This document shows, in pieces, positions 14,738-43,430 of a stretch of 64,000 nt of DNA. The notes under the pieces were generated by a model. That model was not told the DNA's origin. It was given only the letters and a program-made list of their open reading frames with translations, and searched no databases. A program made the translations under genes and the position numbers. This stretch comes from Escherichia coli. GTDB lineage: Bacteria > Pseudomonadota > Gammaproteobacteria > Enterobacterales > Enterobacteriaceae. Position 1 is the stretch's first letter. Each line of letters opens with the position of its first letter. The stretch lies in NCBI GenBank assembly GCA_023061495.1, contig GCA_023061495.1_3643.1. One strand, given 5' to 3'.

Positions 14738-15406
14738 ATGGCTGTAGCTTATCCTACAATACCAATTCCAGATCTTGAAGATGCAGAAACAGTCCTGAGT
14801 GATGACTTCTTGGTTGTCAATCAGACTGATGGGACAAGAAAGGCTAAGATTGACGATGTTGTCAACGATCTCAGCATTACTAAAATAGTCTATTTCACAG
14901 AGGGCGGCTATCTTAAGAGCAAGAAGGACTTTGCTTATGACCCAGAGACCAAGCGCTACTACACGTGGAACGGGGATTATCCTAAAATAATCCTCCCAGA
15001 CTCTACTGTAGATGGTGCTGGGGGTGTGTCTGCAAAAGCCTGGTCTGTTTTTGGAGAGCTTGCTGCAACTTCTTCTGGTAGAATAGTTGATTACGGGTCT
15101 ATTGGTGGTCAGCTTGATATGGACCTTGAAGTTGCTGACACTTTTAAAGTTCGACTAACTTCAAATACCACGATCTCTTTTGAGAATCAAACAGAAGGTC
15201 TTGAAGGGGTGGCGAGAACTATAACCGTATGCATTACTCAGACATCTGGCGGCAACAAAGTCTATTGGCCTGATAATGTTAAATGGGCATACGGAAGAGA
15301 TCCTATCCTAACATTTACAGCTGGTGCAACAGATATTTTCAAGTTAGAAACCTACGACAACGGGTTAACTTGGTACGGGGCACTGATTATCGCAGGAGCT
15401 ATCTAA
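14738..15406 (+). CDS. receptor-binding-protein anchor-domain protein (short)
   Basis: 222 aa; N-terminus (LSDDFLVVNQTDGTRKAKIDDVV ... FTEGGYL ... FAYDPE) is paralogous to the N-terminus of the 1478-aa fibre at 18041. Confidence 0.5.
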   Translation: MAVAYPTIPIPDLEDAETVLSDDFLVVNQTDGTRKAKIDDVVNDLSITKIVYFTEGGYLKSKKDFAYDPETKRYYTWNGDYPKIILPDSTVDGAGGVSAKAWSVFGELAATSSGRIVDYGSIGGQLDMDLEVADTFKVRLTSNTTISFENQTEGLEGVARTITVCITQTSGGNKVYWPDNVKWAYGRDPILTFTAGATDIFKLETYDNGLTWYGALIIAGAI

Positions 15407-15407
15407 G

Positions 15408-18005
15408 ATGCGTATTCAACACAACATTGATAACGTATTTCAGATGATTGAGGGGCACAGGAAGTGCCTCGATAATAACACAGGTATTACCAATCTCCCC
15501 ACGCAGAACAAACTGGTAAACCAGGATGGGCTTATAGCGTCAGGTTGGTCAGGGAGCAAGATAAATAATGATTGGGCAATGCATGAGTCCCAAGCTGTGT
15601 TGATTCTGGGATACATTGAAGCATACAGGGCATCGAAAAGCGATTTCTACTTGGATAGGGCAAAAGCTGCTTGGGAAGCTTACAATAGTCATCTTCTAGG
15701 TGCATATGCAGTAGAAAGTAAAATGCAAAGATTGTCCCACTACCCATTATCCACAGATGGGGTTCCATCGCATGGCGGGTTTAAAGATGTAGTGGTGTCT
15801 TTTACCAATGGTAGAGGAAAAATCCCAGCTGGATCTCCGACATGGGGTGAATACCTAGACAAGGCATTCCAAGCGTATAACGGTGTGCTAGGAAGAAACA
15901 CTGTAGACTCTGATGTTTACGGCGGCACGGATGCTAACCCAAATTGGACAACATCTGGATTAAGTTGGTGGGTTGAGTGGTATATAGCATGGGATGGTAA
16001 CCGCTATTGGGCCAACGGTAGCATAGCCGACAGTGGTCATACGTCTGCAGAGTTCGGCACAATCCAACTGCAGGATAAGGGTGTTACAGGCAGCCACAAG
16101 GTAACCTACTGTGTGAGATTGCCACAAGAGCAGGGTGGATCGGTGATATCTGCTGGATCCCCTGTAATTGTAAACCCTATAAATGTGGTTGCAGACAATC
16201 AAGCCCCAGAGTTGGACGGGGAAGAAATGTGGTGTGACGCTTGTTATCAACTCTACACTTTGACAGACGAGGAAAAGTATTACACCGCGTTTAAACAGTC
16301 TTACAACAAGTTGCTTAATTTCAGTGATATAAATGCCTACGACAAGTTGTTTAGAAAGACCACGTTGATTAAGGCACCGTTCACAGATGGTACTTGTCTC
16401 GTTGCAGGAACAGTTCCTGTCATGAGTAGGGACAGCGACGGGTATATCAATTTTAGAATGAACGCACGCCAGCCTTGCGAAATAATCCAAAAAGGGACTA
16501 CATACAAGATAGGCAGAGATGCTGAAATTGTTATGAATTTCGGAGGAGAGGGGGTTCTGTTCCAGCCACATTTCATCCTTAATGATGGCAACAATAACAA
16601 AAAACAGTATAGGATAGGGGTCCCTTTTGGAGGGTCAGAGGTAACAGAGACAGTTGCCAAGGTTACTGATTTCGTAGAGGTGGTTGGTAAAGACGGTAAC
16701 CCGTATCTTCTGCCAAAAGAGGAAAACATTGCCGTAAGCGGTGGCGCTAGTGTTAGTATGCAATATGATACCGACATTTACAACCACTCCGACAACTTCA
16801 CCCGTTGCAACATAGTAAGAGGCAAAGTAACTTTAAATTTTGGAAGGGAGATTTCTTTAAACTCAGTAACTTATCGATCAGATGATGAGATGGTAAGGGT
16901 CAAATTTCTTGACAAAGACCGTTGGTTATGGTATGCTGATCTATATGCCACTAACGGACAATGGATAACAGAAACTCTTACCCTAGGTGATTTTAAACTA
17001 GATCCAACACAACTTCATCACACAGAAGATGAGATTAAACCTTTCTTTGCCAACCCTAAAGGAATTACCTCTGTAGATTTCAGTCTGAGCGACAGGCAGA
17101 TAGGCAATGGCTTGTTCGATCTGTATTGCGTCAACACTCTGCCGCAATTTTATGTTGCAGATAGGGATGCTTATCTGATCTGGTTTAGTGTATGGATGGC
17201 AAGCAAGACAGAATCAACCGCTAAGGTTGGTGATTGCTATGTCAGAAACTACAAGCAAGGTGCCTACAGGCACACCCCAGGTGTGTTCCCTGCCGGAAAG
17301 GTGATAGACAAGGAAAATTATCTCTTAGAGGAAAGGCCAAATTGGCCCTATCCCGGAATGCAATATCCGGTAGTCTACTGTATGGGTGCGGAAAACATAG
17401 ATCGTCAAAGATTGGCAAATACAATTGGATTTATGTACGACTCCCAAGTTTGGTATAATAACACATTTAAAACAGAAGGACCAGTTGCATCCCGCTACGT
17501 ATGGCAGCGAGGTAATGAGGGGTTGACTGGTTGGTGGGAGATGGTAGATAACTCTAAACTCCAATCAAGAGCCTTTGTTGCTGCGTGCCGCACACTATAT
17601 GAGCTTAAGAAACATAAAGAACCTGTTGATGAAAGACTGTTCCTGTTCTGCCAGAAATGGGCATGGTTCCTCAACAGATTCCAGTCATCTCATTCCGGAA
17701 ATCTACCTACAGACTTTAACACCTCTGGTGGATATTCTTATCAAGACAGAGGGGACAGGATGTGGGTGGTAGGTGAATGGCTTGCAGGTTGCTGCTGGCT
17801 AGGTCTGTGCGGGTATTCAGAGACAATACCTCAAATAGATATTGTTGTAGAAGCCTGTGTGAAGTTACTGCAAAAGCACCACTTCATTAACGGGGATAAT
17901 GTTTTAAACGGCTGCTGGGCAGTTTCTGATCCGGTAGGCTATCACTCTGGCGAAATCCTTCGCGGTCTGGGACTTTATGCCCAATACCGTGGATTGTACC
18001 TTTAA
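15408..18005 (+). CDS. large tail-associated protein, possible glycan-degrading enzyme domain (speculative)
   Basis: 865 aa starting 2 nt after the anchor-domain gene; Trp/Tyr-rich; C-terminal region resembles alpha/alpha-toroid hydrolases by eye only. Confidence 0.45.
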   Translation: MRIQHNIDNVFQMIEGHRKCLDNNTGITNLPTQNKLVNQDGLIASGWSGSKINNDWAMHESQAVLILGYIEAYRASKSDFYLDRAKAAWEAYNSHLLGAYAVESKMQRLSHYPLSTDGVPSHGGFKDVVVSFTNGRGKIPAGSPTWGEYLDKAFQAYNGVLGRNTVDSDVYGGTDANPNWTTSGLSWWVEWYIAWDGNRYWANGSIADSGHTSAEFGTIQLQDKGVTGSHKVTYCVRLPQEQGGSVISAGSPVIVNPINVVADNQAPELDGEEMWCDACYQLYTLTDEEKYYTAFKQSYNKLLNFSDINAYDKLFRKTTLIKAPFTDGTCLVAGTVPVMSRDSDGYINFRMNARQPCEIIQKGTTYKIGRDAEIVMNFGGEGVLFQPHFILNDGNNNKKQYRIGVPFGGSEVTETVAKVTDFVEVVGKDGNPYLLPKEENIAVSGGASVSMQYDTDIYNHSDNFTRCNIVRGKVTLNFGREISLNSVTYRSDDEMVRVKFLDKDRWLWYADLYATNGQWITETLTLGDFKLDPTQLHHTEDEIKPFFANPKGITSVDFSLSDRQIGNGLFDLYCVNTLPQFYVADRDAYLIWFSVWMASKTESTAKVGDCYVRNYKQGAYRHTPGVFPAGKVIDKENYLLEERPNWPYPGMQYPVVYCMGAENIDRQRLANTIGFMYDSQVWYNNTFKTEGPVASRYVWQRGNEGLTGWWEMVDNSKLQSRAFVAACRTLYELKKHKEPVDERLFLFCQKWAWFLNRFQSSHSGNLPTDFNTSGGYSYQDRGDRMWVVGEWLAGCCWLGLCGYSETIPQIDIVVEACVKLLQKHHFINGDNVLNGCWAVSDPVGYHSGEILRGLGLYAQYRGLYL

Positions 18006-18040: not shown

Positions 18041-21000
18041 ATGGCTGATATTAAAGTTGTCAGAATTGAATCTCTTCCTGCCACTACCGCAGTGACAGAG
18101 GATGATTACCTGGTTGTTCAACAACCAGACCTGACCCGTCGTGTAAAAATTGGCGATGTTGTCCATGTGGATGGGACTGTTTCTCATGTAATCTCCTTTA
18201 AGGAAGGTGGTAAGTTAAACGGCCCAATGGATTTTGCCTACTTCGAAGAGGAAGACCTCTACCTGCGTTGGAAAGGCGAATTTCCGCACACTGTTCCTGC
18301 ACTGTCTTCACCTTACGCTGATGGTGGGATTACCGATGCTGCATGGATGGTATATACAGATCCGTCCTTAAGGGAGGAGCTGGAATCTACCATTGGTGCA
18401 TCTATGATCATGACAGCCGAAGGGCAGTCTGTCCAGGATGTAATGGATGTTACGGTTCAGACAGCCAACGATGCTAAAGCGCTTGCACAGCGGGTAGATT
18501 TTGGTACAGTGCATACTGTAGGCGATGTCATTCACCTTGTCAACTTTGTTGGTCCTGCAGTTATTGAAGAGGGAAGAACCACTAACTACCCTTCTGAAGC
18601 AGCTGGTGAAAAATTTCTGAACGGTGTGGTATCTCGTCGTGATACTACAACTGTTGATGGTATTTTCCGTGGCGCTACCTCAGGAGCCATGTATACCATT
18701 GCAGTAACCAACGGTGTAGCAACAACAAAAAGAATAGCACTTCGTGATGAATTTAAACGCCTGGAGGCAAACAATCCAACAAGAACAGTTATCCGTGCTG
18801 GAGATGATTTAAACACAGCAGGGTACTTGCAGCTTGATGCAACAGGCCGTTGGGGTATGTGGAACCAGCAAACAGCCTCGTGGCAACCTCTTGCTATAGA
18901 GCAAGGCGGTACAGGAGCCAGAGATGCCGCTGGAGTCCGTATCAATATCGGTGCTTTCTATAAGCAACGTGCAGCCCTTGAGGCAAATTTTAATATCAAT
19001 AACTTGACTGGTAATCAGGACGGCATATACTATCAGCCGATGACTGCTAATGCAACTGAGGCAAATGGTTACCCTGCAGGTTCTGGTGCTGGTCACTTGA
19101 TTGTTTGGCAGAACAATGCTAACGGCGGTACAGGTTGTCGTCAGGAATACTATCCATTCTCTAACGTGGATGTTTGGTATTTGAGAACCTATCAGGCTAA
19201 CACAAACCAGTGGACTGCATGGCAGCCGATGGTCAGACCTCGGAATGATGACACCTTCAGATCTCATATCGGCCTTGGTAAAAACAACTCTCCTGCTTTC
19301 GGGCACCTTTACTTAGCGCAATACTCAGGAGATGTTAAATCTGCTTCAGGTATTCTCCATGGAGATAAATATAACACTGATGGTGTTCTAGAGCATGGCT
19401 ATAGGATCTACTCCGAGGTAAGAAACGACAATAAGGCGTGGTTAACAATCCACCTGCACAAAGGCGCAAAAGGATCTGAAACTCATAGATATTTAGGCTT
19501 CCGTGAGGATGGGGTCTTAGATTGTCCTAAATATATGCAGGTTGGTGATCTGAACGGTCAGCTGGCAAACTGGGGACTTGGAGAATGGATTCGTAGTTCA
19601 GGGGCAGAAAGAGGATTCTGGGGTTCCAAGAAAGCCGCCAAGATGGTAGTCTGGGATGGAGGGATGGACGAGTCCGGTAATGGTACTCTGGAATGGGGTG
19701 TTTATAACAACCGGAAGGCCAAGTGGGAACCTTTACCTCAGGCCGCAGGTGGCACTGGAGCTACAACTTTAGCAGATGCTCAGAATCTGTTCAAAGTTCC
19801 TGTAGCGGCAGGCGTAAAAGATTTCTTAACACTGCCAAGAACTGCAGGAATGGAAGATGGGAAATACTACCCAATCATCGTTAGAACAGATCCATACTAT
19901 GCGCCCACAACTGGTACTGATATTACTATAGTTACCAGATCGTCATCTGGCAGTGACCCTATGAACTGTGCGACCTTACAGTGTCACTATAGAACTGGTG
20001 GGTGGACAGACAGAGGGGATTCTTTCCAAGGGGTTATTAATTTCTACCAAAACGAGAAAGCAATTCTTGGATGTGTATCCCCAACCAGAGGAAAGCAGGA
20101 GTATGTTGCATTCTATGTTGAGTCGCGTGCTTTCCCTGTCAGTGTCTACACAAGCAGAAACGTTCTTGAGGTATTTACCAGAGAAAATGACTGGCAGGTA
20201 GGAAATGTTACTAATAACCAAGATGGTGTCAAGTTTTGCGCCCCTCTTGCGTCGGATAATTTAAGCCTTGCAATTAAAGGTGATGATGTAACAAACACTA
20301 GGATTCTTGCGGAGTTCAAGGGAACACCTGGGTTCTATACAGGCGGTAGTACAGATCGGCACTATATAGGCACACCTGACCGAATGGTTCTGATGAGTAA
20401 GACAGAAATGCCCCCTGTAGAGATGTGGTACAACGGTCTTAACTACATTTGCCCGGGTAGCCAAACCACTAGAAAAGCACTGTTCTCTAACGCAGGGTTC
20501 CAAGCTGCATCGGAAGGAACAGGGGATCTGATCAACAATACCTTTACCTCTAAATGCGGTAATGGCGCAAGACTGCAAGGACAGGCAGAGTTCAGATCTA
20601 CTCCAGAGGCTGGTCAAGTTATTGTTCGTGATGTTGTAGGTTCTGCTCACAGATTCTACAACTTCAACAAAGATGGCACTTTCTCAGCTCCTGGTGGTTT
20701 TGTATGCCACACTGGTGCAGACTGGAACAACCAGTTTGGGCCTAATAACCCGTCCAAAATACTGGCTGGTAACGTCAACGGGCCTGAAGGTTCAATGGTT
20801 GTTGGCGGGTTGTCTGTGGCGTTTTCTGGAAACTATGCTTTCCAGATGGCAGGTAGTTTAGATCAGCTGTACACCCGTTCCATAGAGCGGGGTAACCACA
20901 GAGCGTGGAACAAAGTTATTCAGCACCGTGGTCAAGGGTTGGGGACTAGTGACCTTAACGATTACAAAGCGGATCGCGAAGGTATTTACCATCAAGAGGC

Positions 21001-22477
21001 AAATGCCAACGCCACAGCGGAAAGACACTACCCACCAGGGAAGCAGATGGCTGGTACGCTGATCGTGCTTAGAAACTCTGCCAACGAAGGTACAGGTTGT
21101 GTCCAGATATATAAAATGTATCTTGGGGGAACGTGGGAAAGGTACTATAATAACACTGGCAGCGGAATGAACTGGAGCCCTTGGAAGAGAACGAGCTTCC
21201 CAGAAAGTACAACTGCCCCAGTCATGCCTGACCTGTGGTTGCCTTTAACCTCTAATCTAAAACCTGTACTAGGTGAAGGTGAGATGGTGTTCTCCAGACC
21301 TTCTACAGCAACATATTTCACTAAGCGCGGTGTCATGGCTGTTGCACAGGCAAACCAACCACGTTTCGAAAGAGATGGTCTGCTCATTGAAGGTCAAAGG
21401 ACAAATCTGATGCTTAACAGTGAAGACCCGAGCAAATGGGGAGCCCAGTCACAGATTACGGTCGGCAACACTGTAACAAACACCAACGGCACAAAAGGTG
21501 CAAGATTTACAGTAAGCAACGTATCCGGTGTAGAAACAACGGCGTTAAACCTGGCTACAGTTCCAGCCACCCGAGGTGCAGATGTAACAGGTGCTGAGAA
21601 ATTTTGTACTGGATCTATTATTGCAAGAGGTGGTAAAGCTCACCAGAGACTGCGTGTAAGATTCGACATGTATAACGGATCCACCACAGTATTCCAGGGT
21701 GATGCCTATGTTAACCTGTCAACACTTGAAGTTAAAACAACAGGTGGTGCAGCTGGGAGAATTAAAGTAAAAGCTGAGAGATGGCAAACAGCCGGACCTG
21801 CTTGGATAAGGGTTGTTGCTACGTTTGAGGCAGTGGCCTCTGACATGAATATTGGGTGCCAGTTCCAGATTGCCCCGCCGGAGGGTTCTCAACACGCCGC
21901 AGGGGATTGGATTGACGTCGCAATACCTCAGTTTGAGTTAGGATCTTGTGAGTCCTCGTTTATCCCTACAGGGTCTTCACCAGTGACTAGGGCAGCAGAC
22001 CTTTGTAAATTCCCAATGACTGATAATTTAGCACCTAGACCGTTCACCATCGCCGCTACTGTGGATGCCAACTGGAGAGGTTGGGGAAAAGCTCCTAACG
22101 CAGCTCCTAGGGTTATTGATACAGAGGGTCGCGCTGCATTTATCATGGGGTTTGGCTCTGCAGCGAATATTGCAGAAGATGGTTATCCATATTGCGATAT
22201 TGGTGGTTCAAACAGACGTGTTTATGAGATGGCTAAAGCACGTAAGTTGAAGATGGGGTTCAGGATAAAAGAAGATGGTAAAACCTGCTCTTTTGCCAAC
22301 GGTCTGGTGAGCACGGAAACACAATCTTCTTGGGAATTCCTGGCAGGAGGCGCTCTCATCCGTCTCGGCGGTCAAACAGCGACAGGAGAAAGACATTTGT
22401 TTGGTCATATTAAAGATGTAAGAGTTTGGAACTCTGCATTGACCGATACCCAGCTTATGATGGAGAGTGTTGAATAA
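18041..22477 (+). CDS. long tail fibre protein with N-terminal anchor module, internal duplication and C-terminal LamG/ConA-like lectin motif
   Basis: 1478 aa; RBS AGGAGAAAG; anchor shared with 14738 gene; duplicated segment (...GHLIVWQNNANGGTGCRQEYY... vs ...GTLIVLRNSANEGTGCVQIYK...); C-terminal LFGHIKDVRVWNSALTDTQL. Confidence 0.6.
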   Translation: MADIKVVRIESLPATTAVTEDDYLVVQQPDLTRRVKIGDVVHVDGTVSHVISFKEGGKLNGPMDFAYFEEEDLYLRWKGEFPHTVPALSSPYADGGITDAAWMVYTDPSLREELESTIGASMIMTAEGQSVQDVMDVTVQTANDAKALAQRVDFGTVHTVGDVIHLVNFVGPAVIEEGRTTNYPSEAAGEKFLNGVVSRRDTTTVDGIFRGATSGAMYTIAVTNGVATTKRIALRDEFKRLEANNPTRTVIRAGDDLNTAGYLQLDATGRWGMWNQQTASWQPLAIEQGGTGARDAAGVRINIGAFYKQRAALEANFNINNLTGNQDGIYYQPMTANATEANGYPAGSGAGHLIVWQNNANGGTGCRQEYYPFSNVDVWYLRTYQANTNQWTAWQPMVRPRNDDTFRSHIGLGKNNSPAFGHLYLAQYSGDVKSASGILHGDKYNTDGVLEHGYRIYSEVRNDNKAWLTIHLHKGAKGSETHRYLGFREDGVLDCPKYMQVGDLNGQLANWGLGEWIRSSGAERGFWGSKKAAKMVVWDGGMDESGNGTLEWGVYNNRKAKWEPLPQAAGGTGATTLADAQNLFKVPVAAGVKDFLTLPRTAGMEDGKYYPIIVRTDPYYAPTTGTDITIVTRSSSGSDPMNCATLQCHYRTGGWTDRGDSFQGVINFYQNEKAILGCVSPTRGKQEYVAFYVESRAFPVSVYTSRNVLEVFTRENDWQVGNVTNNQDGVKFCAPLASDNLSLAIKGDDVTNTRILAEFKGTPGFYTGGSTDRHYIGTPDRMVLMSKTEMPPVEMWYNGLNYICPGSQTTRKALFSNAGFQAASEGTGDLINNTFTSKCGNGARLQGQAEFRSTPEAGQVIVRDVVGSAHRFYNFNKDGTFSAPGGFVCHTGADWNNQFGPNNPSKILAGNVNGPEGSMVVGGLSVAFSGNYAFQMAGSLDQLYTRSIERGNHRAWNKVIQHRGQGLGTSDLNDYKADREGIYHQEANANATAERHYPPGKQMAGTLIVLRNSANEGTGCVQIYKMYLGGTWERYYNNTGSGMNWSPWKRTSFPESTTAPVMPDLWLPLTSNLKPVLGEGEMVFSRPSTATYFTKRGVMAVAQANQPRFERDGLLIEGQRTNLMLNSEDPSKWGAQSQITVGNTVTNTNGTKGARFTVSNVSGVETTALNLATVPATRGADVTGAEKFCTGSIIARGGKAHQRLRVRFDMYNGSTTVFQGDAYVNLSTLEVKTTGGAAGRIKVKAERWQTAGPAWIRVVATFEAVASDMNIGCQFQIAPPEGSQHAAGDWIDVAIPQFELGSCESSFIPTGSSPVTRAADLCKFPMTDNLAPRPFTIAATVDANWRGWGKAPNAAPRVIDTEGRAAFIMGFGSAANIAEDGYPYCDIGGSNRRVYEMAKARKLKMGFRIKEDGKTCSFANGLVSTETQSSWEFLAGGALIRLGGQTATGERHLFGHIKDVRVWNSALTDTQLMMESVE

Positions 22478-22809
22478 TGAATACTTTTACCCTTGGGTTT
22501 ACTGGTAGGGAGGATTTTAACGGTTTCATGGACGAAATCGGCTTTTACGAGAACGAGGTGTTGCAAAACACCCTTCTTGTAGAGGTTGTCGGGTTTATTT
22601 ACACAGAAACTGAAGACACTTATGAGGCCGAGGACGAGTTTGGCAACATGGTTGTCTACCCAGTTTGCGAGAAAAGTAAATTGTTTTATGTCAACGTTCT
22701 GGCTCTAGACGAGGATGCAGAAAACATCGTCTCGAAAAGCGGAAAAGTTGTAGATCCGATAAGGTTGAACATGTTCGACCAATCAGTATCTACCTTGGAA
22801 GCACTTTAA
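22477..22809 (+). CDS. hypothetical small acidic protein (possible fibre chaperone)
   Basis: 110 aa, start overlaps fibre stop (TAATG); followed by terminator. Confidence 0.4.
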   Translation: MNTFTLGFTGREDFNGFMDEIGFYENEVLQNTLLVEVVGFIYTETEDTYEAEDEFGNMVVYPVCEKSKLFYVNVLALDEDAENIVSKSGKVVDPIRLNMFDQSVSTLEAL

Positions 22810-22815
22810 AGTATT

Positions 22816-22841
22816 GCCCTCGCTTCGGCGGGGGCTTTTTG
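22816..22841 (+). terminator. rho-independent terminator with UUCG tetraloop
   Basis: GCCCTCGC-TTCG-GCGGGGGC hairpin followed by TTTTT; same hairpin family as 28735 and 54667. Confidence 0.7.
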
Positions 22842-23497: not shown

Positions 23498-23498
23498 G

Positions 23499-35159: not shown

Positions 35160-35615
35160 ATGACTAAACCAGTTATCCCTCTTGATATTTGGGCCAATCA
35201 GGATGTTGTGCTTGAAAATACGGGAGAATTGAATAAGTCCCAACCAAAAAAAGAAGAGAGATTGAAAGGTTGGGATATGACACAAAGAGTGGCATGTGAG
35301 GTTGTTAACTTTGAACTTCACATGCTTTCTGCGTGNNNNNNNNNNNNNNNNNNNNNNNNNNNNNNNNNNNNNNNNNNNNNNNNNNNNNNNNNNNNNNNNN
35401 NNNNNNNNNNNNNNNNNNNNNNNNNNNNNNNGGGTGTTGAAGATGTAAGGATAGCAAACCGCTTCAGAACCACCTACAGAGAATCAAGAGTATACCCTGG
35501 GCATGTAATGTGCTCCGGCAATTACGCCTATAAACACCCGTATCAAGGTGACTATTGGACTGGTGCTATTCAAAAATTTGTAAACGGTCAATGGATTACC
35601 ATATCTTATGCTTAA
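35160..35615 (+). CDS. short tail fibre paralogue (middle masked by N)
   Basis: ATG 35160 preceded by CAGGAGA; shares N- and C-terminal motifs (YWTGAIQKFVNGQWITISYA) with the 33104 gene; frame preserved across a 96-nt N-run. Confidence 0.5.
   Translation: MTKPVIPLDIWANQDVVLENTGELNKSQPKKEERLKGWDMTQRVACEVVNFELHMLSAXXXXXXXXXXXXXXXXXXXXXXXXXXXXXXXXXGVEDVRIANRFRTTYRESRVYPGHVMCSGNYAYKHPYQGDYWTGAIQKFVNGQWITISYA
35336..35431. other. run of 96 N (masked or unresolved sequence) inside a CDS
   Basis: Literal N characters; flanking ORF remains in frame. Confidence 0.95.
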
Positions 35616-35900: not shown

Positions 35901-37646
35901 ATGGCGCAAGACATGACAAGCTTCGAGCAGGCGGTAGATCAAGTAATTGTTGATTCTGAACGTTTGCACTTGATTGTCAACGGTAACGCTGTGGATGAAG
36001 TTGTCGTAGAGGATGGGACCACTATCCCTACGGTACGAAAAGCCATGCTTGACACCCTTTATTTTAAAACGCCACCAATCCCTTGGGCGTATGGTGCATC
36101 CACAACAGTTTTTAACCAGTTGTATGAGTTTAAAGGGGATACAGGCACTCAGTGGTGGTACGCCCCAGCAGCATCAAAATCTAACCCAGTTAGGATGCCA
36201 GCAGATCCTTCACAATCTCCGAACTGGAGATTATATACCGATTCTGCAGTAATGGCAAAATACTACGCAAAACTTAACAGCCCAAGGTTCGAAGGTGACC
36301 CGAGAGTACCTACACCCCCAATGGACGATAAGTCTGAGTCTATAGCAAACACAGAGTTTGTTGTTGACTATGTGGATAGCATATTTAAAGCCATGGAGGG
36401 GATGAAAGTTACTGTAGGGTCTTTGGTGGTAAAAGGTCTTACAGAACTAGCTAACACCATAGTTGGGGGCACCCTTACCTTACATGGGCCTGTTAATGGA
36501 GCAGATTCTACTGCACGCTTCAGGAACCTAATCCTCACGGCAAATACTTCTACACTTACTTTTGCGTGGAGCGATCCTAAGCATGCAGACTGGAGAAGCA
36601 CAGAGCTGCAACCTCATGAAGTGTCCACCCACAGGGTTATAGCTGACACTATAACCTCTGGGAAACCAGTGGCTAATAATAACGATGTACATTTTGATGG
36701 TCTTGGTAATAACTTTTTTGACTACGTGTACATTCGTGGTAATGCCATGAAGGCAGCAACCGAACCTACATTGCAGGTCGATGGGACCGCCAGGGTTAAG
36801 AACCTTGAGGTGACAGGCACCGTTACAGGGATAACCTACTCTGTTGATGGTACCATGATCTACCCTAGCTATATTGAAAGCACGGGTGATGCATTGATAA
36901 ATGGCGATTTAGAGGTTGGTGGGTCTGTAGTTATTCGAGGTACAGCCTCTATCCAAAACATAGCTCTGAACACTCTGAGAGTCAATGAGCGTGCAACTTT
37001 TGAAGGGGAAGGGCTTACAGCTAACAAAGGCATAATTACCGAGCTGACAACAACTACTTTAACTGCAACAACTGCAAACTCTGAAAACTGCAACGTTACC
37101 AGAAACTTGCAGGTAAACGGCGATGTTAGCTTAAATGACAACGGCACAGGAACAACACGCCTTCATAACCTTGAAATATCCGGCACAGTGACTGGGTGGC
37201 TGCCAGACTTCTCTAATGTCAATTTTGTTTGTAATGGTATTAACTCCAGCGGTAAGATAACCACCTCTCAAGGAATTGAGGCTGGTAAAACCATCACTGC
37301 CCCTACTTTCCACGCAGGAAAAGTAGACTTTGACTTAGAGGAGGTTGACGCATCTAGTGGGACATGGACACCTAACGGGCAGGCCAGTATGTATGTTGTC
37401 CACGCTAAAGGGGATTTTACAATAGGGCAGTGGCCTGGGACATCAGCGGAAGATAAACCTTATCCATTCACTGCAGTTATCTATGTCATTCAGGATGCCG
37501 TAGGTCACAACGTGACTTTGCACGATAAGTATGCTATCCTGTCGGCAACACCTGTTATTAACAACAAGGCTAACAGTGTTACCCTGCTGCAATTAACATA
37601 TTGTGGTGTTGGTGATATCGTAGACGTAGTAATTGCACAACGTTAA
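35901..37646 (+). CDS. tail fibre/tailspike protein
   Basis: 581 aa, RBS AAGGAGAAA; repeated beta-strand-like segments in the C-terminal half; terminator downstream. Confidence 0.5.
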   Translation: MAQDMTSFEQAVDQVIVDSERLHLIVNGNAVDEVVVEDGTTIPTVRKAMLDTLYFKTPPIPWAYGASTTVFNQLYEFKGDTGTQWWYAPAASKSNPVRMPADPSQSPNWRLYTDSAVMAKYYAKLNSPRFEGDPRVPTPPMDDKSESIANTEFVVDYVDSIFKAMEGMKVTVGSLVVKGLTELANTIVGGTLTLHGPVNGADSTARFRNLILTANTSTLTFAWSDPKHADWRSTELQPHEVSTHRVIADTITSGKPVANNNDVHFDGLGNNFFDYVYIRGNAMKAATEPTLQVDGTARVKNLEVTGTVTGITYSVDGTMIYPSYIESTGDALINGDLEVGGSVVIRGTASIQNIALNTLRVNERATFEGEGLTANKGIITELTTTTLTATTANSENCNVTRNLQVNGDVSLNDNGTGTTRLHNLEISGTVTGWLPDFSNVNFVCNGINSSGKITTSQGIEAGKTITAPTFHAGKVDFDLEEVDASSGTWTPNGQASMYVVHAKGDFTIGQWPGTSAEDKPYPFTAVIYVIQDAVGHNVTLHDKYAILSATPVINNKANSVTLLQLTYCGVGDIVDVVIAQR

Positions 37647-37654
37647 TATATCTA

Positions 37655-37694: not shown

Positions 37695-40600
37695 ATGCTT
37701 CCAATCCCTTTGCTAAAACTTGGTCGTCATTTCCTCGATAAGAGGGGTGGAATTAAGGAACTTGCTGTTCTGTCATACCCAATAGACAACAGTGATGGCA
37801 CAAGCACTACAGTACCCTATGTAAATAGCTTAGCTATACTTTTTGATGATGGTCAACTTAATATCACGGGATATAACAGGTTCGGAGAGTGCCGCACTGG
37901 GGATCTTGACACGATAAACTATCCCAACGAGGCTGCCTGGAACGTTGATCATGTGTGGAGAGCAGACCGTGCGTTTGTGATCCGAACTTTTGATAACCAG
38001 TTTTTCTACATCGGCTGCACTGCAGGGCTTATTGGGTCTGATGCTGCAGGCGGTAATGATGTTTGTGTAAGAGAGTGGACACCTCTTCCTGAACAGATCG
38101 TTAAAGGGTTGCACCTTGACACCCACCCAGAGCGCCTTATTGAGGTGATGGGTGGTATTAACAACACTGTCTGGGTTATTGCAGAGGCAGAAGGCACAGG
38201 CATACTGAATCTGTATGGGTCTGGTAACAACACCTACGGATCTTTGCATGTAGATAAAAATCAGCATGCAACCCCTGTAAAGATCGGTGAGACATCGGAA
38301 AATCCTGAAACAGGCCCTTGGAAAAACCCAAGCATTAACTGCGAGGTGCATGACAACTCTGTTATTTTCGGTGGTCCTAGAGGTTTCTGGATTGCTGGAT
38401 ACGACTTTCTGAGAAATAACAGTAGAAACGACCTTGTTTGGCCTCCTGTGCAGATTACTCGTAACGATTTGAGAGGCATTCCTGCAGATGAGGAGTGGAA
38501 AGGGTTTATGTGTGGTCCTAACGGGGCAATAATTGCCACACAGAGGATGCACAAACCTAATGACCAGCAGCTTGTTAACGTATTCTACGGGCAAGACGTC
38601 TGGGGAGATGACACATGGCGTTCCTTAAATATCACCTACACCCATGAGGTGATAATGGCTCGTGGATACGGAACAAGTGGCATTTTCTTCAATAATGGCA
38701 CTAAGCAGTATCGTGGGTTCTCTCGCAACTTGTGTAATGATATTGGTGCACAATCTGCAAACAATAGCCCTAGGGCCAATTTTATCCACTATCAAGCTCT
38801 TGCTACAGCTAAATATGTTGAGCAACGCCTGCCAGTTAGCTGGACAGAGAGTGTTTATTTCCAAGGCATCCACAGAGAAGGTTTCTTAGGGACCTTTACT
38901 GTTGTTAATGGTAAACTTTGGTGGTCAGGCATCCCGAGGGGAAGTTTTGCAGGATCTAACAACCTGTTTGGCGGCAGACTTAATAGTCAGGGGTTCACAG
39001 AGGTTCCTGAGAATTGGTATAAAAATGTCCCAGTAGACAGTTGGGGTGTTGATGATATTTTCGATGTTAACGGTGTTAGCAGCGTTAGCAATATCTACAT
39101 TGGTGACACGGTCAAGATGAAACTGAAGCCTCAGCCAGAGGGGGCTACGTTCATTATTGACAAAATTGAACTGGTAAATGCTGCAGGCACGGTTGTTACA
39201 GATGCAAATTACCAATTCTCCGCCAACTGGAACCACGGTGGGGCCAACGAAGTTGTTGTTACCCAATATAACAGAAATGTTAACAGACGTGGACTGTACT
39301 CTGTAAAAATAACCTATCATGACAAACATGGCACAGGCAGAACCCACACAACAAGGACTTTGAACTGGAACACTATCGTCCCAGCGTACCCGTCTGATGG
39401 TAAATGGCATACTGTCGGTAGAAACAAACAGTTCCATGTCAACGATACTGTATACTTTGGGTTGAATGCGGCCCAGCCTGCAGTAGAAGGGGATACATCG
39501 TATATGGTCAGACTCCATAGAATGGATGCTGGATCAGTAACTTATGATGTTACTCAAGAGATTTATAATCAGCGACGAAATACCTATGATAACTTGGTGC
39601 AGACACAGGCCTTATGGGAGTTCAACCCAAACGGCAGAGGTGGTAAAATGTTGCAGGTCAACGAACAAAACGGGACATCGTTGACGGTTCACGAACACCC
39701 AAACCCTTGGCCTGATCCTGGAAAACCTAACTCTGGTGCTCGTACATTAAAAATTGTCAGCCATGACGTAGGATATTTCGGAATACGCTGGGAAGCCACA
39801 GTAAGATATGCTGACGGGACGACAAACAATATTGGGATCACCCTTGGTGGCACTAGTGAGGATAACTCACTGAAAATTGCCTACACTCCTAGAGGCATTT
39901 CTATTGATAATATGGATGTTGTTCGCAACGGTTACGGGGATGTGAACATCAAAGTCACCCTTGGTGAACATCTTGGTGGGGAAAGAATCATCATGTATGC
40001 CTTTGATCATGACCCTCGCACCAACGGAACATATGCAGACCAGGCGTGGAGTTACCTGATAAGTGCACCTGAGCCAAATACTAAAGAATTCTACTACGGT
40101 ATGAAGCGCAATGTGTGCAAGAAAACAGGGACACATGACTGGATTGCAATCTGCGTTAAGGATGAGCGTACTGCTTGGAACGAACCTGTTAATAGATGGT
40201 TCGTAGGTATTCCCACCCGAAGTGATAAATACGTTGAAGAATATATTGTGTGCATGGGCGGCACCAACCTTAATATGTGTTGGAACGAGGATGCAAACAA
40301 CAAATACTCTGATTATGACTATATGCGGGACTATTCTTGCAATCAGTGGTTTAACCAACCTGGATATGCTGATCGACAGGCAAGAGTGAATCCTGCAATC
40401 TTCACAGATACTCAGGTTTTCTTGACAAAACAGGCTAACGAGGTTCAGACCTTCAAGAACAAATACGATCCTAACAAGTGGTTTTATAACTGTTATGGCG
40501 CATTTTTCTGGGGTCCTGGCGAACTACCTAATGGAGGATCTTGCTTCGAGGCTGCAACTTACGCCAGTGACAGGTTTATGGGGCAGGTTAAGAAGTACAA

Positions 40601-43430
40601 GATAATCCCTGGTCCTGAAACTCTGGGCAATGCCGTTGACCCTTATATCGTCATGACCGTGCTGAGATCAAACATGGATGGGACATCCATGTCTATGCAA
40701 GTTCCAGTAACAAACGGGTACAAACGTGTTGTGATGATCATTAAGTGCGACTTAATAGGTAAGCAAGTTCTTGCAGAAAACGGAACCTCAACACATTTAT
40801 TCGAGACTGCTCTGCATTATCAGTTTGCTGATTCACCTTTTGCAGGGGATAAGAGAATATCTGATACAGACAATGCTCGATGCAAGAAATTTATGCTTGG
40901 TGGTGGATGGTGGTGGTATGAATTTGATTTAACAGACAAATTCACCGACACGTCTAAAGTGGTGACAGGGCTTCGTCTAGATCTTGGCGAAAACATGCAC
41001 AAAAGTGTTTGTGATGGCACCTACGGTGACCCAACAATCTACTTAAAGTATGTTTCTTTTGAGCACCCAGAGGATGTCGTTTATGGTCCAAAACTGAGAC
41101 TGTTTGGCAATTGGATTGCTAAAGACAGGGCAGGTATGGGTAAAAAGGTGAGAGGGTTCTTAGTTGATGCAGGAACAGAAGACATGTTGGTTAATGCAGT
41201 GTGGCCTGAATTACCGGGAACTCAGTGGGACAATTCTGCTAAGTCTATAAACTGGTTCAATATCCACAGAGCTATGTGGGCAACTAACTGCTATCTGTGG
41301 AAAGAGTTGAATGACGGCGCTTTCGGGTTTACTGGTGGCAGAAGAATGGCAATCATTTGCTGGACAACGCTGCAGAGATGTTATGACCATGACTACGAGA
41401 TTGGAGGCAGGGCATGGAAAAATATAAGGGATAGAATCATAACTAACTTTGCAGATCCTAACGGTGGCGGGGCGTATGGTTTCGACTGCAGCAGGCTTAT
41501 CCATTTGAACGGATCTTCGGCCTATAAGAAAGAAGGCTACTCTGGGGCCATGATTGAATGGGGCTTGGTAAAAGATTCTCGTGTGTTGATGGGTCAGCAA
41601 CTTGCTGCTGCAATAGGACCGAACGCAGTACAATCTGTTAAACCAGCATGGTTCGATATCCCATTATGGTCCTCTGGAACACCAGGAACTGCTGCAATCA
41701 ACCCTACCACTGGGGATCTGGAAATCTCCTGGGAGGACCTGAAGCAGGTCGGTGGCTGGGATAAGGCAGGGTACCAGGTGCAATGGTGGAGATCTGACGG
41801 ATCATTGGCGGCTGATGAGTTTGTTAAGGACAATTTCTACACCATGTCCTCTGCAAAAGCACAGCAATTGTTTGGTCAGGCCACTCCGTCAACGATCACC
41901 ATGTCCATGTGCTGTAAAGACACCAGGACTGGAGCTCTGGGGCCAAGGGTTGCTAAAGTTTTCTCAGGTATTAAATGGAATCTCCCTGTTCAAAGTGTTT
42001 CATGGAAGCAAATAGGTGATAACAAGCTGCTGGTTACCCCAGCTTGTCAGTTCAGCGCAACTCTTAACGTTGATCCTGCTGTTGCGGCAAACTCAGCTAA
42101 AGCTTCTGACTTCTCTGTGTCTAACACTGCTATGGCAGATGTGAGGAAGATTGACACGCTGAACGCCAGAATTACCTGTAAAAACACTTATGGCACATTC
42201 CAGATCATCAACAACTTCACAGATGCTGATTCTAAGGTAGTGAGGACAGCAAGCCAAACTCTGAGTTTAGGAACTCTGGCCTACGCGGCCCTGATCACTG
42301 AACAGTCGGCAACACTCCAAGGAGGCGGTGTAGGCAAGTCCATTGCAACACCTGTGTGGAAGCCAAATGAGTGGGTTGTGTTTGATTTAACTGTGGACTT
42401 CTCCAGCGATAATAACTGGACATGGGTAAGGAATTNNNNNNNNNNNNNNNNNNNNNNNNNNNNNNNNNNNNNNNNNNNNNNNNNNNNNNNNNNNNNNNNN
42501 NNNNNNNNNNNNNNNNNNNNNNNNNNNNNNNNNTTCTTGTCACAACTGATGGGTGGCCCAAACTCAGTTAGTGATAGCCAAGACTCCACTGACCCGAGTG
42601 TGTTTCAGGTGGGTAAAACTCACCCAGAAACTGGGGCACCGTTGCCTGACAGGAAGTATGCTTTGGTTTGCATCTCTTACGGAAAAGCAGATGTAACCTT
42701 CTCAGGGACACACACATATAACGGCACTTACAACTTCTCTAAAAAGTACAGCCTCAAGGCAGGTAACATTGTAGACGAGGTTGGTGCGTTGTATAATCCA
42801 GGAAACGGGATAGGGATTGTAGGTGGTAAACTGCAGATGCAGGAACCTTCTATTACCCCTTCCAATGTGCCAGGAATCAGAAAGACTTGGGAAAGTAGTA
42901 ATACCAACATTGCAACAGTGGATGCTACCACAGGGCTGGTAACATTTAAAGCTACTGGGAATGTCACTATAAAGTTTGTAGTTACAGATGATGCAGGGCG
43001 CAAAACGTCTTCAACATCTTTTACTGTCAAACAGATGGCACCACAGTGGAGAATGTGGATAGGTACAGCAACAAACGGGGCATATCCTAATCCGGCAGGG
43101 ACTTCTGGTATGAAGACTTTCTCTACAAGCAAGCCGATGGAGTACGGCAGCGGTCCTAAGGTAGGGCAGATGGTGTACTTTGGTGCGTATATTCCTGAAA
43201 TTATAGGGCTTCCGAGAAGTCAGCTTCAGTTGCTGTTTGGGGCTGGTGTTGACGATCTTGCCACTTTCGGGTATAGAGACAACATCGATGCTGCAAGGAG
43301 TTCAGGATGGGTAGGGTTCAGAATGGAGTCTGGAAAGGAAGGCAGGATTCTAGGGACAGCCTCTATAGGTGTTATGTTCCCTGGTGACCAGCAGTATCGT
43401 CTAGAAGCCTACGCAACCTTTTCTCGTTAA
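37695..43430 (+). CDS. giant virion-associated protein (1911 aa) with bacterial Ig-like (Big_2-type) domain; part masked by N
   Basis: Single ORF preserved in frame across a 98-nt N-run; segment PSNVPGIRKTWESSNTNIATVDATTGLVTFKATGNVTIKFVVTDDAGRKTSSTSFTVK resembles Big_2 domains; ends at a bidirectional terminator. Confidence 0.55.
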   Translation: MLPIPLLKLGRHFLDKRGGIKELAVLSYPIDNSDGTSTTVPYVNSLAILFDDGQLNITGYNRFGECRTGDLDTINYPNEAAWNVDHVWRADRAFVIRTFDNQFFYIGCTAGLIGSDAAGGNDVCVREWTPLPEQIVKGLHLDTHPERLIEVMGGINNTVWVIAEAEGTGILNLYGSGNNTYGSLHVDKNQHATPVKIGETSENPETGPWKNPSINCEVHDNSVIFGGPRGFWIAGYDFLRNNSRNDLVWPPVQITRNDLRGIPADEEWKGFMCGPNGAIIATQRMHKPNDQQLVNVFYGQDVWGDDTWRSLNITYTHEVIMARGYGTSGIFFNNGTKQYRGFSRNLCNDIGAQSANNSPRANFIHYQALATAKYVEQRLPVSWTESVYFQGIHREGFLGTFTVVNGKLWWSGIPRGSFAGSNNLFGGRLNSQGFTEVPENWYKNVPVDSWGVDDIFDVNGVSSVSNIYIGDTVKMKLKPQPEGATFIIDKIELVNAAGTVVTDANYQFSANWNHGGANEVVVTQYNRNVNRRGLYSVKITYHDKHGTGRTHTTRTLNWNTIVPAYPSDGKWHTVGRNKQFHVNDTVYFGLNAAQPAVEGDTSYMVRLHRMDAGSVTYDVTQEIYNQRRNTYDNLVQTQALWEFNPNGRGGKMLQVNEQNGTSLTVHEHPNPWPDPGKPNSGARTLKIVSHDVGYFGIRWEATVRYADGTTNNIGITLGGTSEDNSLKIAYTPRGISIDNMDVVRNGYGDVNIKVTLGEHLGGERIIMYAFDHDPRTNGTYADQAWSYLISAPEPNTKEFYYGMKRNVCKKTGTHDWIAICVKDERTAWNEPVNRWFVGIPTRSDKYVEEYIVCMGGTNLNMCWNEDANNKYSDYDYMRDYSCNQWFNQPGYADRQARVNPAIFTDTQVFLTKQANEVQTFKNKYDPNKWFYNCYGAFFWGPGELPNGGSCFEAATYASDRFMGQVKKYKIIPGPETLGNAVDPYIVMTVLRSNMDGTSMSMQVPVTNGYKRVVMIIKCDLIGKQVLAENGTSTHLFETALHYQFADSPFAGDKRISDTDNARCKKFMLGGGWWWYEFDLTDKFTDTSKVVTGLRLDLGENMHKSVCDGTYGDPTIYLKYVSFEHPEDVVYGPKLRLFGNWIAKDRAGMGKKVRGFLVDAGTEDMLVNAVWPELPGTQWDNSAKSINWFNIHRAMWATNCYLWKELNDGAFGFTGGRRMAIICWTTLQRCYDHDYEIGGRAWKNIRDRIITNFADPNGGGAYGFDCSRLIHLNGSSAYKKEGYSGAMIEWGLVKDSRVLMGQQLAAAIGPNAVQSVKPAWFDIPLWSSGTPGTAAINPTTGDLEISWEDLKQVGGWDKAGYQVQWWRSDGSLAADEFVKDNFYTMSSAKAQQLFGQATPSTITMSMCCKDTRTGALGPRVAKVFSGIKWNLPVQSVSWKQIGDNKLLVTPACQFSATLNVDPAVAANSAKASDFSVSNTAMADVRKIDTLNARITCKNTYGTFQIINNFTDADSKVVRTASQTLSLGTLAYAALITEQSATLQGGGVGKSIATPVWKPNEWVVFDLTVDFSSDNNWTWVRNXXXXXXXXXXXXXXXXXXXXXXXXXXXXXXXXXFLSQLMGGPNSVSDSQDSTDPSVFQVGKTHPETGAPLPDRKYALVCISYGKADVTFSGTHTYNGTYNFSKKYSLKAGNIVDEVGALYNPGNGIGIVGGKLQMQEPSITPSNVPGIRKTWESSNTNIATVDATTGLVTFKATGNVTIKFVVTDDAGRKTSSTSFTVKQMAPQWRMWIGTATNGAYPNPAGTSGMKTFSTSKPMEYGSGPKVGQMVYFGAYIPEIIGLPRSQLQLLFGAGVDDLATFGYRDNIDAARSSGWVGFRMESGKEGRILGTASIGVMFPGDQQYRLEAYATFSR
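42436..42533. other. run of 98 N (masked or unresolved sequence) inside a CDS
   Basis: Literal N characters; flanking ORF remains in frame. Confidence 0.95.

Follow-up and report, generated by a model that had tools for sequence, protein, structure and literature searches.

General features of the locus

The region at 14738-43430 of the window (the whole stretch of DNA analysed, 64,000 nucleotides) carries the baseplate and tail-fibre genes that are standard for an rV5-like (Vequintavirus) E. coli phage, and we are highly confident that a late-gene cluster of such a myophage is the best explanation overall. Over 100 sequenced rV5-like E. coli phages share 92-95% DNA identity with the window; a 24-kb query matched 128 phage records, and in 108 of these the match, at 90-95% identity, extended over at least 80% of the query. 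Across the region, gene order is identical in six annotated relatives. All open reading frames listed for it are present in their places on the plus strand, with strong matches to tail and fibre families (Pfam, PHROGs) and an annotated orthologue in the six relatives, and a domain or fold could be assigned to every protein. The counterpart is the rV5 gp27-gp44 locus (closest in HMD-6, ECP26, ECP32 and EmilHeitz/Bas49), which agrees in gene content and gene order, at 92-100% DNA identity, and likewise has two short-fibre paralogues with a Tfa chaperone and N4 gp65-like, J-like and giant Ig-like proteins. The same three genes are variable, and the window differs only in its combination of alleles, its assembly being gapped.

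The nine or more fibre and spike genes counted in the earlier note are all present together with the Tfa chaperone, and correspond to the "nine annotated tail fiber proteins" reported in EmilHeitz (Bas49) and MaxBurger (Bas54), on whose baseplates a 'fiber network' has been imaged (RBPseg paper, PMC12143355). They do occupy about 28 kb, but not alone, as at least eight non-fibre genes lie among them (two for wedge proteins, one for a Dit-like protein, two for small tail-tip proteins, and ORFs of 110, 104 and 88 aa). The branched, multivalent and modular arsenal that had been proposed is supported; published work already sees rV5-like and phi92-like phages in this way (PMC8594841, PMC12143355), with three co-expressed lateral fibre sets likened to a Swiss army knife on the nanoscale (Maffei et al. 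2021, PMC8594841). Absence of these proteins from particles, the finding named as speaking against that proposal, has largely been tested for on the relative rV5, and the test is largely passed because mass spectrometry of rV5 virions detected orthologues (gp27, 30, 32, 33, 36, 37, 41, 42 and 43; PMC3606486). The locus is real but ordinary, its nine fibre genes and multi-fibre baseplate having already been described and imaged in close relatives; the present analysis adds the (alpha/alpha)6 barrel of the 865-aa protein and the collinearity of the J module with the Seuratvirus tail tip.

The window is a draft scaffold with four N runs (14611-14704, 25021-25116, 35336-35431 and 42436-42533). Runs 1, 2 and 4 hide essentially nothing, their flanks abutting or overlapping by 1-10 nt; with these gaps removed, the J-like protein is intact at 1381 aa, the giant protein has 1878 aa and the first baseplate protein 238/239 aa.

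Anchor protein, barrel enzyme and lateral fibre

The non-fibre context gene at 13913..14728 (+) encodes the rV5 gp44 orthologue, a baseplate protein whose apparent 271 aa are inflated by the first N run. It is syntenic with the 238-aa 'baseplate protein' of relatives, matches phrog_4233 and phrog_120 (baseplate wedge subunit), and its position directly after the spike gene, like that of phi92 gp139, suggests a sheath initiator. The 222-aa anchor or adaptor protein (14738..15406, +; rV5 gp43) has a TSP1/gp66-type anchor in residues 1-105, followed by a small C-terminal domain. It scores 41.9 bits against Pfam Tail_spike_N (cut-off 25) and matches phrog_7760 tail fiber (E 1.5e-118); its PDB matches are CBA120-type tailspike N-termini, and its orthologue rV5 gp43 is found in virions (PMC3606486). 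A common N-terminal anchor in the proteins at 14738 and 18041, as previously claimed, is borne out by 38% identity over 99 aa (E 3e-18), both proteins being above the cut-off for Pfam Tail_spike_N (PF18668). In an all-against-all BLASTP of the locus proteins, this anchor pair and the short-fibre pair are the only internal paralogies. The same domain is found in CBA120 (TSP1-4) and G7C (gp63.1/gp66), where it mediates attachment, whereas the window baseplate is of a different myovirus type; neither an adaptor accepting Tail_spike_N anchors nor a branching adaptor of TSP2/TSP4 or gp66 type was found in the locus.

The 865-aa protein (15408..18005, +; rV5 gp42) lacks the anchor module and has an (alpha/alpha)6 barrel of glycoside-hydrolase type, broken up by beta-rich insertions; it is probably a polysaccharide-degrading enzyme. 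The 1478-aa lateral fibre (18041..22477, +; rV5 gp41 position) combines the same anchor as the 222-aa protein with a conserved shaft of ~1050 aa and a tip allele, and matches Pfam Tail_spike_N, phrog_6578 and phrog_1419. Its last ~429 aa are the 'lectin-like head' allele, 30-47% identical to lateral fibres of T1-like, T5-like, Seuratvirus and Dhillonvirus phages. Against the ECP32 allele, identity is 87% over the first 1050 aa, after which the two are unrelated, the ECP32 tip being Peptidase_S74; replacement of the one tip by the other has been described and imaged (PMC12143355). The 110-aa ORF that follows (22477..22809, +; phrog_1361, function unknown) accompanies the lectin-head allele, being present in EmilHeitz, HMD-6, ev146, FFH2 and LL12 and absent from phages with the Peptidase_S74 allele (ECP32). 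Its product may be a tip assembly factor.

J-like tail-tip module and giant protein

Judged from sequence comparison, the next four genes are a siphovirus-type tail-tip module, collinear with its counterpart in Seuratvirus VogelGryff (bas25_0017-0020; a Queuovirinae tail tip of the lambda M-L-K-J type). The 196-aa Dit-like protein (22907..23497, +; phrog_1302 distal tail protein, E 3.7e-49) is 32% identical to the product of the VogelGryff gene directly after the tape measure gene, the 183-aa tail-tip protein (23499..24050, +; phrog_2048 tail protein) 38% to bas25_0018, and the 141-aa DUF6950 protein (24050..24475, +; Pfam, E 2.7e-34) 45% to bas25_0019, a 'putative minor tail protein'. The fourth is the J-like protein (24475..28726, +; rV5 gp37), rightly recognised as such before, and reconstructed by removing the second N run and a 10-nt contig overlap. 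Its orthologue matches Pfam Ig_J_second and Phage_Tail_Tip and, in the PDB, lambda J and the J C-terminal domain. It is 53% identical to Seuratvirus J over 694 aa, with the hub, Ig-like and C-terminal tip domains conserved, but has an additional coiled coil of ~270 aa. J alleles differ in coiled-coil length, and the long one carried here occurs in 13 known phages. Unlike that of VogelGryff, the module does not adjoin the tape measure gene, and the phage has its own contractile-tail hub and spike.

The giant protein (37695..43430, +; rV5 gp27) had been described as Ig-like and 1911 aa long. Its Ig-like character holds (Pfam Big_2, E 1.5e-7; phrog_15684 and phrog_215; a weak intimin match), but the length does not, as the fourth N run adds 33 spurious codons. 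Possibly, though we think it rather unlikely, the true arsenal is smaller, not all nine proteins being receptor-binding fibres and the giant and/or the J module being sited off the baseplate periphery, where they might, for instance, decorate the neck or head or serve as scaffolds in assembly. The phrog_215 match, to 'head and packaging: structural protein with Ig domain', lies at the giant C-terminus, and rV5 gp27 was detected in virions at just 3.1% coverage, with non-tryptic peptides (PMC3606486). Of the nine fibres, just three (the short fibre and those of the 581-aa and 1478-aa types; PMC12143355) were placed in cryo-EM density of relatives, and since the phage owns a hub and spike, a J trimer would have no obvious central position. 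Against this, both gp37 and gp27 are present in rV5 virion preparations (PMC3606486), both genes lie inside the late fibre cluster, and each ranks in the top three of the locus for variability, as is typical of host-contact proteins.

Wedge proteins and associated fibres

Two context genes of the rV5-like cluster encode wedge components. The first (28831..30321, +; rV5 gp36) specifies the 496-aa baseplate wedge 2, a fibre docking platform with Pfam Baseplate_J and PDB matches to phiTE wedge 2 (E 1e-158) and phi92 gp145 (E 9e-56). The second (30333..31019, +; rV5 gp35) specifies a 228-aa protein matching phrog_4056 baseplate protein (E 6.5e-103), which from its position beside wedge 2 is probably wedge 1. 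The 690-aa protein (31019..33091, +; rV5 gp34) had been called Calx-beta-like, a term that fits a minor, sub-threshold match at its N-terminus (25.6 bits, cut-off 27); the body is an N4 gp65-type TIM barrel, a deacetylase-like domain (Pfam TIM-barrel_NCTSP, E 6.7e-80; NCTSP_N, E 1e-12; PDB N4 Gp64, E 1.4e-24). This gp65-like protein is a candidate binder of the NGR glycan (PMC8594841 and further literature on NGR binding).

Short tail fibre 1 (346 aa; 33104..34144, +; rV5 gp33; phrog_4465) matches the phiTE short tail fibre in its N-terminal 108 aa (E 1.3e-19) and Mu tail fibre protein S at its C-terminus (E 1.8e-6). It is followed by the tail fibre assembly chaperone of Tfa/gpU type (194 aa; 34159..34743, +; rV5 gp32; Pfam Caudo_TAP, E 1e-11; phrog_136). 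The 581-aa fibre (35901..37646, +; rV5 gp28; phrog_4549) is a homologue of the phiTE long tail fibre, with residues 8-325 matching PDB 9cuy_g (E 4.3e-77), and is probably the TC8 class fitted in the Bas49/Bas54 maps (PMC12143355).

Wedge 2, the N-terminal half of the long fibre (E 4e-77) and the short-fibre N-terminus (E 1e-19) thus have homologues in phiTE (a Pectobacterium myophage; PDB 9CUY/9MJN), which therefore provide a docking geometry for the window fibres; in phiTE, a helical bundle at the N-terminus of the long fibre has its docking site on wedge 2 and the sheath initiator (phiTE structure paper). The phiTE fibres, however, differ in their distal parts and are longer (793 and 554 aa), and the phiTE paper names only three fibres. 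In phi92 (Justusliebigvirus), which has fibres I, II and III on each wedge, the concept of several co-displayed enzymatic fibres is the same, as is the core order of tape measure, tube initiator, plug, hub, spike and sheath initiator, then fibres, wedges and short fibre. phi92 differs from the window in its single short fibre, its endosialidase (gp143) and its spike that degrades colanic acid (gp150), and, compared by description, the phi92 fibre and baseplate genes named in published accounts include no counterpart of the siphovirus-type J module.

Predicted mode of adsorption

The contractile tail would carry several different fibre and spike systems on each of the six wedges of its baseplate. 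Going by solved structures of homologues, the short fibres would dock on wedge 1 through their N-terminal ~100 residues and the 581-aa fibre on wedge 2 and the sheath initiator, through a helical bundle at its N-terminus, while the 1478-aa fibre would sit in the wedge-proximal fibre network. For the 222-aa/865-aa pair, the J module, the 690-aa protein and the giant protein, we infer the virion positions. The N4 gp65-like protein might bind the conserved NGR surface glycan, leading to passage through the O-antigen layer; the barrel enzyme, probably carried by the anchor protein encoded directly upstream, would act on polysaccharides; and other, strain-specific polysaccharides could be acted on by the 1478-aa fibre, the J-like fibre and the giant through their variable tips. 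Last, the Mu-S-like pair of short fibres, folded with help from the Tfa chaperone, would bind the LPS core and set off contraction; LPS core glucose is reported as the terminal receptor (PMC8594841). On this analysis 'multivalent' would denote a capacity rather than a demonstrated use, because the locus is mostly highly conserved between phages and because, with E. coli K-12 as host, they behave as effectively monovalent (PMC8594841).

Module exchange and mosaicism

Comparison with related phages, suggested earlier as a route to exchanged cassettes, did find them: the tip swap, the J length alleles and the blocks of mosaic identity are real, mostly published, cases of module exchange. Between 26.5 and 36 kb the sequence is 99-100% identical to ECP32; HMD-6 is matched at 98-100% in parts of 17-22 kb, and EmilHeitz at 97-99% in 37.5-38.5 kb. 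For a patch of 500 nt at 20.0-20.5 kb, rV5_ev168 and MaxBurger are the closest (92.5%). The allele combination joins a lectin-head tip as in HMD-6/EmilHeitz to a long J as in ECP32/NHEP1. It is improbable that this mosaic is an assembly chimera of several co-occurring Vequintavirus strains and not a natural recombinant. The sequence is indeed a scaffold with four gaps, and three contig ends abut or overlap, as is typical when strain variation breaks the graph, but the block boundaries lie off the gaps (the ECP32-like block crosses gap 3 and starts 1.4 kb inside a contig), and like allelic mosaics are documented among isolate genomes (PMC8594841, PMC12143355).

Short tail fibre 2 (35160..35615, +; rV5 gp30) is incomplete in the assembly, with only ~59 N-terminal and ~61 C-terminal residues readable on alignment with a 347-aa orthologue. 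The third N run stands for ~685 nt of the gene (its flanks map to L001 28826 and 29512), so the '152-aa' ORF at 35157/35160 is an assembly artefact, and a 152-aa fibre is rejected in favour of a normal 347-aa paralogue behind a scaffold gap. The proteins at 33104 and 35160 had been said to share their termini: they are paralogues (346 and 347 aa in intact relatives, 44% identical along the whole length), and the restriction to the termini comes from the gap. A true 152-aa remnant of internal deletion or shuffling, as an ORF in frame across an N run of just 96 bases might suggest, is very improbable, given that the other three N runs (94-98 bases) represent ~0 nt, so that N length is uninformative on gap size, that the flanks are 99.8-100% identical to ECP32, whose 1044-nt gene is intact, and that the gene is full-length in 6/6 relatives examined.

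A consensus scan places a terminator-like hairpin after the 110-aa ORF (22816..22835, +) and others at 28732-28753, 35079-35100, 37654-37675 and 43447-43468. The total count in the scan is not above shuffled expectation; these five, the strongest matches and all intergenic, split the locus into five units, the ends of which coincide with cassette ends.

Identity and organization of the locus

Megablast comparison of window positions 14000–38000 with 50,697 phage records returned 128 matching records, in 108 of which at least 80% of the 24-kb query is covered at 90–95% identity. Almost without exception they come from Escherichia phages in the genus Vequintavirus (rV5-like myophages), and the best matches are HMD-6, ECP26 and B9-1 (about 94.5%). 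Gene content and order are the same as in the window in all six annotated relatives (EmilHeitz, HMD-6, ECP32, rV5_ev146, FFH2 and LL12). The shared order leads from the tail sheath to the tape measure, tube initiator, plug, hub, spike and 238-aa baseplate protein, and on across the whole baseplate and tail-fibre span (14738–43430). By nucleotide identity, full synteny and the presence of orthologues of rV5 gp27–gp49, the window belongs to Vequintavirus. Every gene from 322 to 43430 is on the + strand, and GC skew and gene orientation both switch at about 43.5 kb. Besides fibres, the span encodes wedge 2 (496 aa; similar to phiTE wedge 2, E 1e-158, and to phi92 gp145), a 228-aa baseplate protein, a Dit-like protein, two small tail-tip proteins and ORFs of 110, 104 and 88 aa.

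For phages 92–100% identical to the window, publications already cover the locus with its nine fibre genes, the replacement of a fibre tip and the multi-fibre baseplate. As a discovery the locus matters little; its value is as a check, the accepted interpretation having been reached by the earlier note from the sequence only. That note proposed a branched, multivalent adsorption apparatus, in agreement with the multi-fibre apparatus published for the relatives, and the fibre locus it described is real, although partly distorted by assembly gaps.

Upstream of the span, the tail tube and assembly chaperone genes are separated by a 541-aa HNH/homing-endonuclease ORF (6015–7640, + strand; phrog_559, E 1e-110); since it occurs in HMD-6 but not in EmilHeitz, it is probably a mobile insertion. 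A tandem trio of 86–87-aa ORFs at 47173–47962 (− strand), two in PHROG 10698 and one in PHROG 12861, looks like a small local gene family. The database matches include 18 unannotated GenBank records labelled “Campylobacter phage” (MG0656xx, host Campylobacter jejuni); they share 92–93% identity with the present E. coli Vequintavirus locus and probably represent mislabelled or contaminating genomes.

Assembly gaps and gene models

The window is a scaffolded draft, as seen from its four runs of N (14611–14704, 25021–25116, 35336–35431 and 42436–42533; 94–98 N each). When the 60-nt flanks of every run were placed on the EmilHeitz genome, those of the first, second and fourth abutted or overlapped (with overlaps of 10 nt for the second run and 1 nt for the fourth), so that these three are scaffold placeholders with no sequence hidden in them. 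Removing the runs and overlaps leaves open frames for the J-like protein (1381 aa), the giant Ig-like protein (1878 aa) and the baseplate protein (238/239 aa). The seeming frameshift in the J-like gene, which appears as raw ORFs 24475–25131 and 24956–28726, and the 1911 aa attributed to the giant in the earlier note, are both artefacts of N runs.

At the third run the flanks lie 685 nt apart in EmilHeitz. The ORF around it (35157–35615) aligns near-perfectly with its EmilHeitz orthologue over residues 1–59 and over the last ~61 residues, with only X between, and is therefore an ordinary 347-aa second short fibre whose middle is unread. In all, the four runs simulated a frameshift, inflated two ORFs and made one gene look “truncated”, illustrating how N runs in draft assemblies can mimic truncated or “shuffled” genes. 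Masked real insertions, such as small mobile elements, were rejected as an explanation because the flanks of three of the four runs abut or overlap in all relatives; one such insertion would also disrupt the J reading frame.

Fibre and spike proteins

When all proteins of the locus were compared with one another by BLASTP, exactly the two pairs of internal paralogues in the earlier note were recovered and no others. Both pairs are truly related, but for the short fibres the wording in terms of shared termini does not hold. In intact relatives these two paralogues share 44% identity over their full length, and rV5 gp30 and gp33 have been reported at 42.3% identity (PMC3606486); the common N- and C-termini of the genes at 33104 and 35160, which had been read as shuffling, are what is left of full-length paralogy around a scaffold gap. 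Short fibre 1 (33104–34144, 346 aa; rV5 gp33) matches the phiTE short fibre at its N-terminus and Mu protein S at its C-terminus, and the chaperone that follows it matches Pfam Caudo_TAP. The arrangement is thus one of two Mu-S-like short-fibre paralogues flanking a Tfa chaperone, the first intact and the second interrupted by the gap.

The other pair was correctly described as sharing an N-terminal anchor module. Residues 8–105 of the 222-aa protein (14738–15406; rV5 gp43) are 38% identical in BLASTP to residues 7–105 of the 1478-aa fibre (18041–22477), with E 3e-18. Both pass the cut-off of 25 bits for Pfam Tail_spike_N (PF18668; the TSP1/gp66 N-terminal domain), at 41.9 and 38.4 bits respectively, and both have PDB matches to the N-terminal parts of CBA120- and G7C-type tailspikes of known structure. 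The TSP1/gp66-type attachment domain of the branched CBA120/G7C tailspike complex is therefore present in these two proteins; searches of Pfam, PHROGs and PDB sequences recognised no branching adaptor accepting Tail_spike_N among the locus proteins.

Between them, the 865-aa protein (15408–18005) is predicted to form an (alpha/alpha)6 barrel in an AlphaFold2 model built on an alignment of 36 sequences from an exhaustive HMMER search. A model from a four-sequence alignment (three homologues, found by a word-indexed search) was unusable, with a pLDDT of 38. Some 865-like proteins carry N-terminal extensions of ~270 aa, which by BLASTP and phmmer have no significant similarity to the 222-aa protein; the single exception, P0061, is an oddly arranged 293-aa fragment (E 2e-6) that was not counted as evidence. 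A fused-gene (“Rosetta stone”) tie between the 222-aa and 865-aa proteins was accordingly rejected.

The 690-aa protein (31019–33091; rV5 gp34), previously called Calx-beta-like, is mainly a TIM barrel of the N4 gp65 type (PF23845, E 6.7e-80; PDB N4 Gp64, E 1.4e-24); a Calx-beta match does exist, but below the Pfam cut-off. It is thus an N4 gp65-like deacetylase/TIM-barrel fibre, and a candidate binder of the N4 glycan receptor (NGR). The 581-aa fibre (35901–37646; rV5 gp28) has a homologue in the long tail fibre of phiTE (E 4.3e-77), and the giant (37695–43430; rV5 gp27) has Big_2/intimin-like Ig domains. Self-BLAST of the large fibres revealed no internal repeats.

Tip replacement and mosaicism

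The 1478-aa fibre is 87% identical to its 1269-aa allele in ECP32 over the first 1050 residues, beyond which the two are unrelated. At its end the ECP32 allele has a Peptidase_S74 domain, an intramolecular chaperone, whereas the window allele has a 429-aa tip, about 96% of which aligns at 30–47% identity with lateral fibres from siphoviruses (T1-like, T5-like, Dhillonvirus, Seuratvirus and Nonagvirus). Only 36 Vequintavirus records have this tip at 80% identity or more. The same replacement, of a lectin-like head in EmilHeitz (Bas49) for S74 in MaxBurger (Bas54), was described in the RBPseg study and confirmed by cryo-EM (PMC12143355). Directly after the lectin-head tip lies a 110-aa ORF (22477–22809), which is absent from ECP32. 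It accompanies only the lectin-head allele and not the tips that end with the S74 self-chaperone, a linkage which suggests that it may be a dedicated tip assembly factor.

A 500-nt sliding comparison with the six relatives gave a mosaic picture: 26.5–36 kb is 99–100% identical to ECP32, parts of 17–22 kb are 98–100% identical to HMD-6, and 37.5–38.5 kb is 97–99% identical to EmilHeitz. One patch in the shaft of the 1478-aa fibre (20.0–20.5 kb) shows only 70–75% identity with the six otherwise close relatives but 92.5% with rV5_ev168, rV5_ev158 and MaxBurger, and represents a small internal patch of recombination. In a scaffolded draft such blocks could also have arisen as an assembly chimera, but their edges do not fall at the scaffold gaps, making natural recombination more likely than a chimera. 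Variation is greatest in the three genes also named by Maffei et al. (PMC8594841), and strong terminator-like hairpins are predicted in the five intergenic gaps bounding the cassettes. Modular exchange, as the earlier note had it, is thus real in the tip replacement, the J alleles and the mosaic blocks, most of it already described, but the short-fibre termini were a gap artefact.

The adsorption apparatus

The span has the organization of a phi92-type locus, with several fibres and spikes bearing varied glycan-related domains in one late cluster: the predicted (alpha/alpha)6 barrel, the deacetylase-like TIM barrel, the lectin-head tip, the Mu-S-like tip and the Ig-like domains. In phi92, three kinds of fibre sit on the wedges as six trimers each (PMC13450770). 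The phi92-type apparatus displays its fibres together, whereas here the set is read from the genes, display being known from the relatives only. Nine annotated fibre proteins were counted in EmilHeitz and MaxBurger, and their fibre network was reconstructed; three of the nine could be fitted in cryo-EM maps (EMD-51868 and EMD-51869), namely the short fibre, a class that combines two beta-helices with a helical bundle at the N-terminus, and the modular fibre of the 1478-aa type (PMC12143355). Mass spectrometry of rV5 virions found gp27, 30, 32, 33, 36, 37, 41, 42 and 43 (PMC3606486). In phiTE, the short fibre attaches to wedge 1 via N-terminal loops, and the long fibre to wedge 2 and the sheath-initiator C-terminus via an N-terminal helical bundle (PMC11972413); the short and 581-aa fibres of the window are homologous to phiTE over exactly these attachment parts.

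Genetics point to a conserved glycan as the first receptor of the relatives, which are effectively monovalent on K-12; Maffei et al. assigned it to ECA (PMC8594841). This glycan was later identified as NGR, bound by the gp65-like protein. In a plausible sequence of events, lateral proteins would bind and degrade the surface glycan first, the short fibres would then bind the LPS core, and contraction would follow last.

A siphovirus-like tail-tip module

The J-like protein (24475–28726, 1381 aa) corresponds to rV5 gp37. Its orthologue matches Pfam Ig_J_second and Phage_Tail_Tip as well as lambda J in the PDB; in NCBIfam there is a match to lambda_TipJ that is sub-threshold only; the Dit-like protein found no PDB sequence match below E 0.1. 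Together with a 183-aa protein and a DUF6950 protein, these two form a module (22907–28726; order Dit-like, 183-aa, DUF6950, J-like) that is collinear with the four genes after the tape measure of VogelGryff, a siphovirus of the genus Seuratvirus (7001–11217 in its genome), at amino acid identities of 32%, 38%, 45% and 53% in that order. The four collinear homologues amount to a whole siphovirus tail-tip module, which this myophage has beside its own hub and spike. As in the lambda-type tail-tip complex, a J protein with hub, Ig-like and tip domains follows a Dit-like and two small tip proteins. However, the lambda-type module adjoins the tape measure and closes the end of the tail tube, while that of the window lies 12 kb downstream of its tape measure, with separate genes for tube initiator, hub and spike at 10921–13900.

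Outside Vequintavirus, homologues of the Dit-like protein and of the N-terminal half of J occur, among the matches listed, in phages of ~33–83 kb, of which the closest (Seuratvirus, Nonagvirus and PY54) are siphoviruses. For both proteins, identities are at least 80% or 90% within Vequintavirus and at most 58% elsewhere, with no values between. One tentative reading, which we consider rather improbable, is that the module is a complete siphovirus tail-tip complex, nearest to Queuovirinae, captured and mounted peripherally on the contractile baseplate, which already has its own hub and spike, to form an autonomous appendage. The homology itself is evident from the compared sequences, while the direction of capture and an autonomous assembly at the periphery are conjectural. 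If true, this would be an unusual way of making a fibre, from the tail tip of another morphotype, and would concern the genus as a whole and not the window alone. The kinship is not discussed in the cited rV5-like literature, although annotation pipelines already apply the labels “distal tail protein” and “central tail fiber J”.

The J-like protein also contains an inserted coiled coil of ~270 aa, whose repeats are too diverged to be detected by Tandem Repeats Finder, which found no arrays within 14–44 kb. At least three alleles of the gene exist (1199, 1279 and 1381 aa), differing in the number of coiled-coil units, and 13 known phages have the long allele carried by the window.
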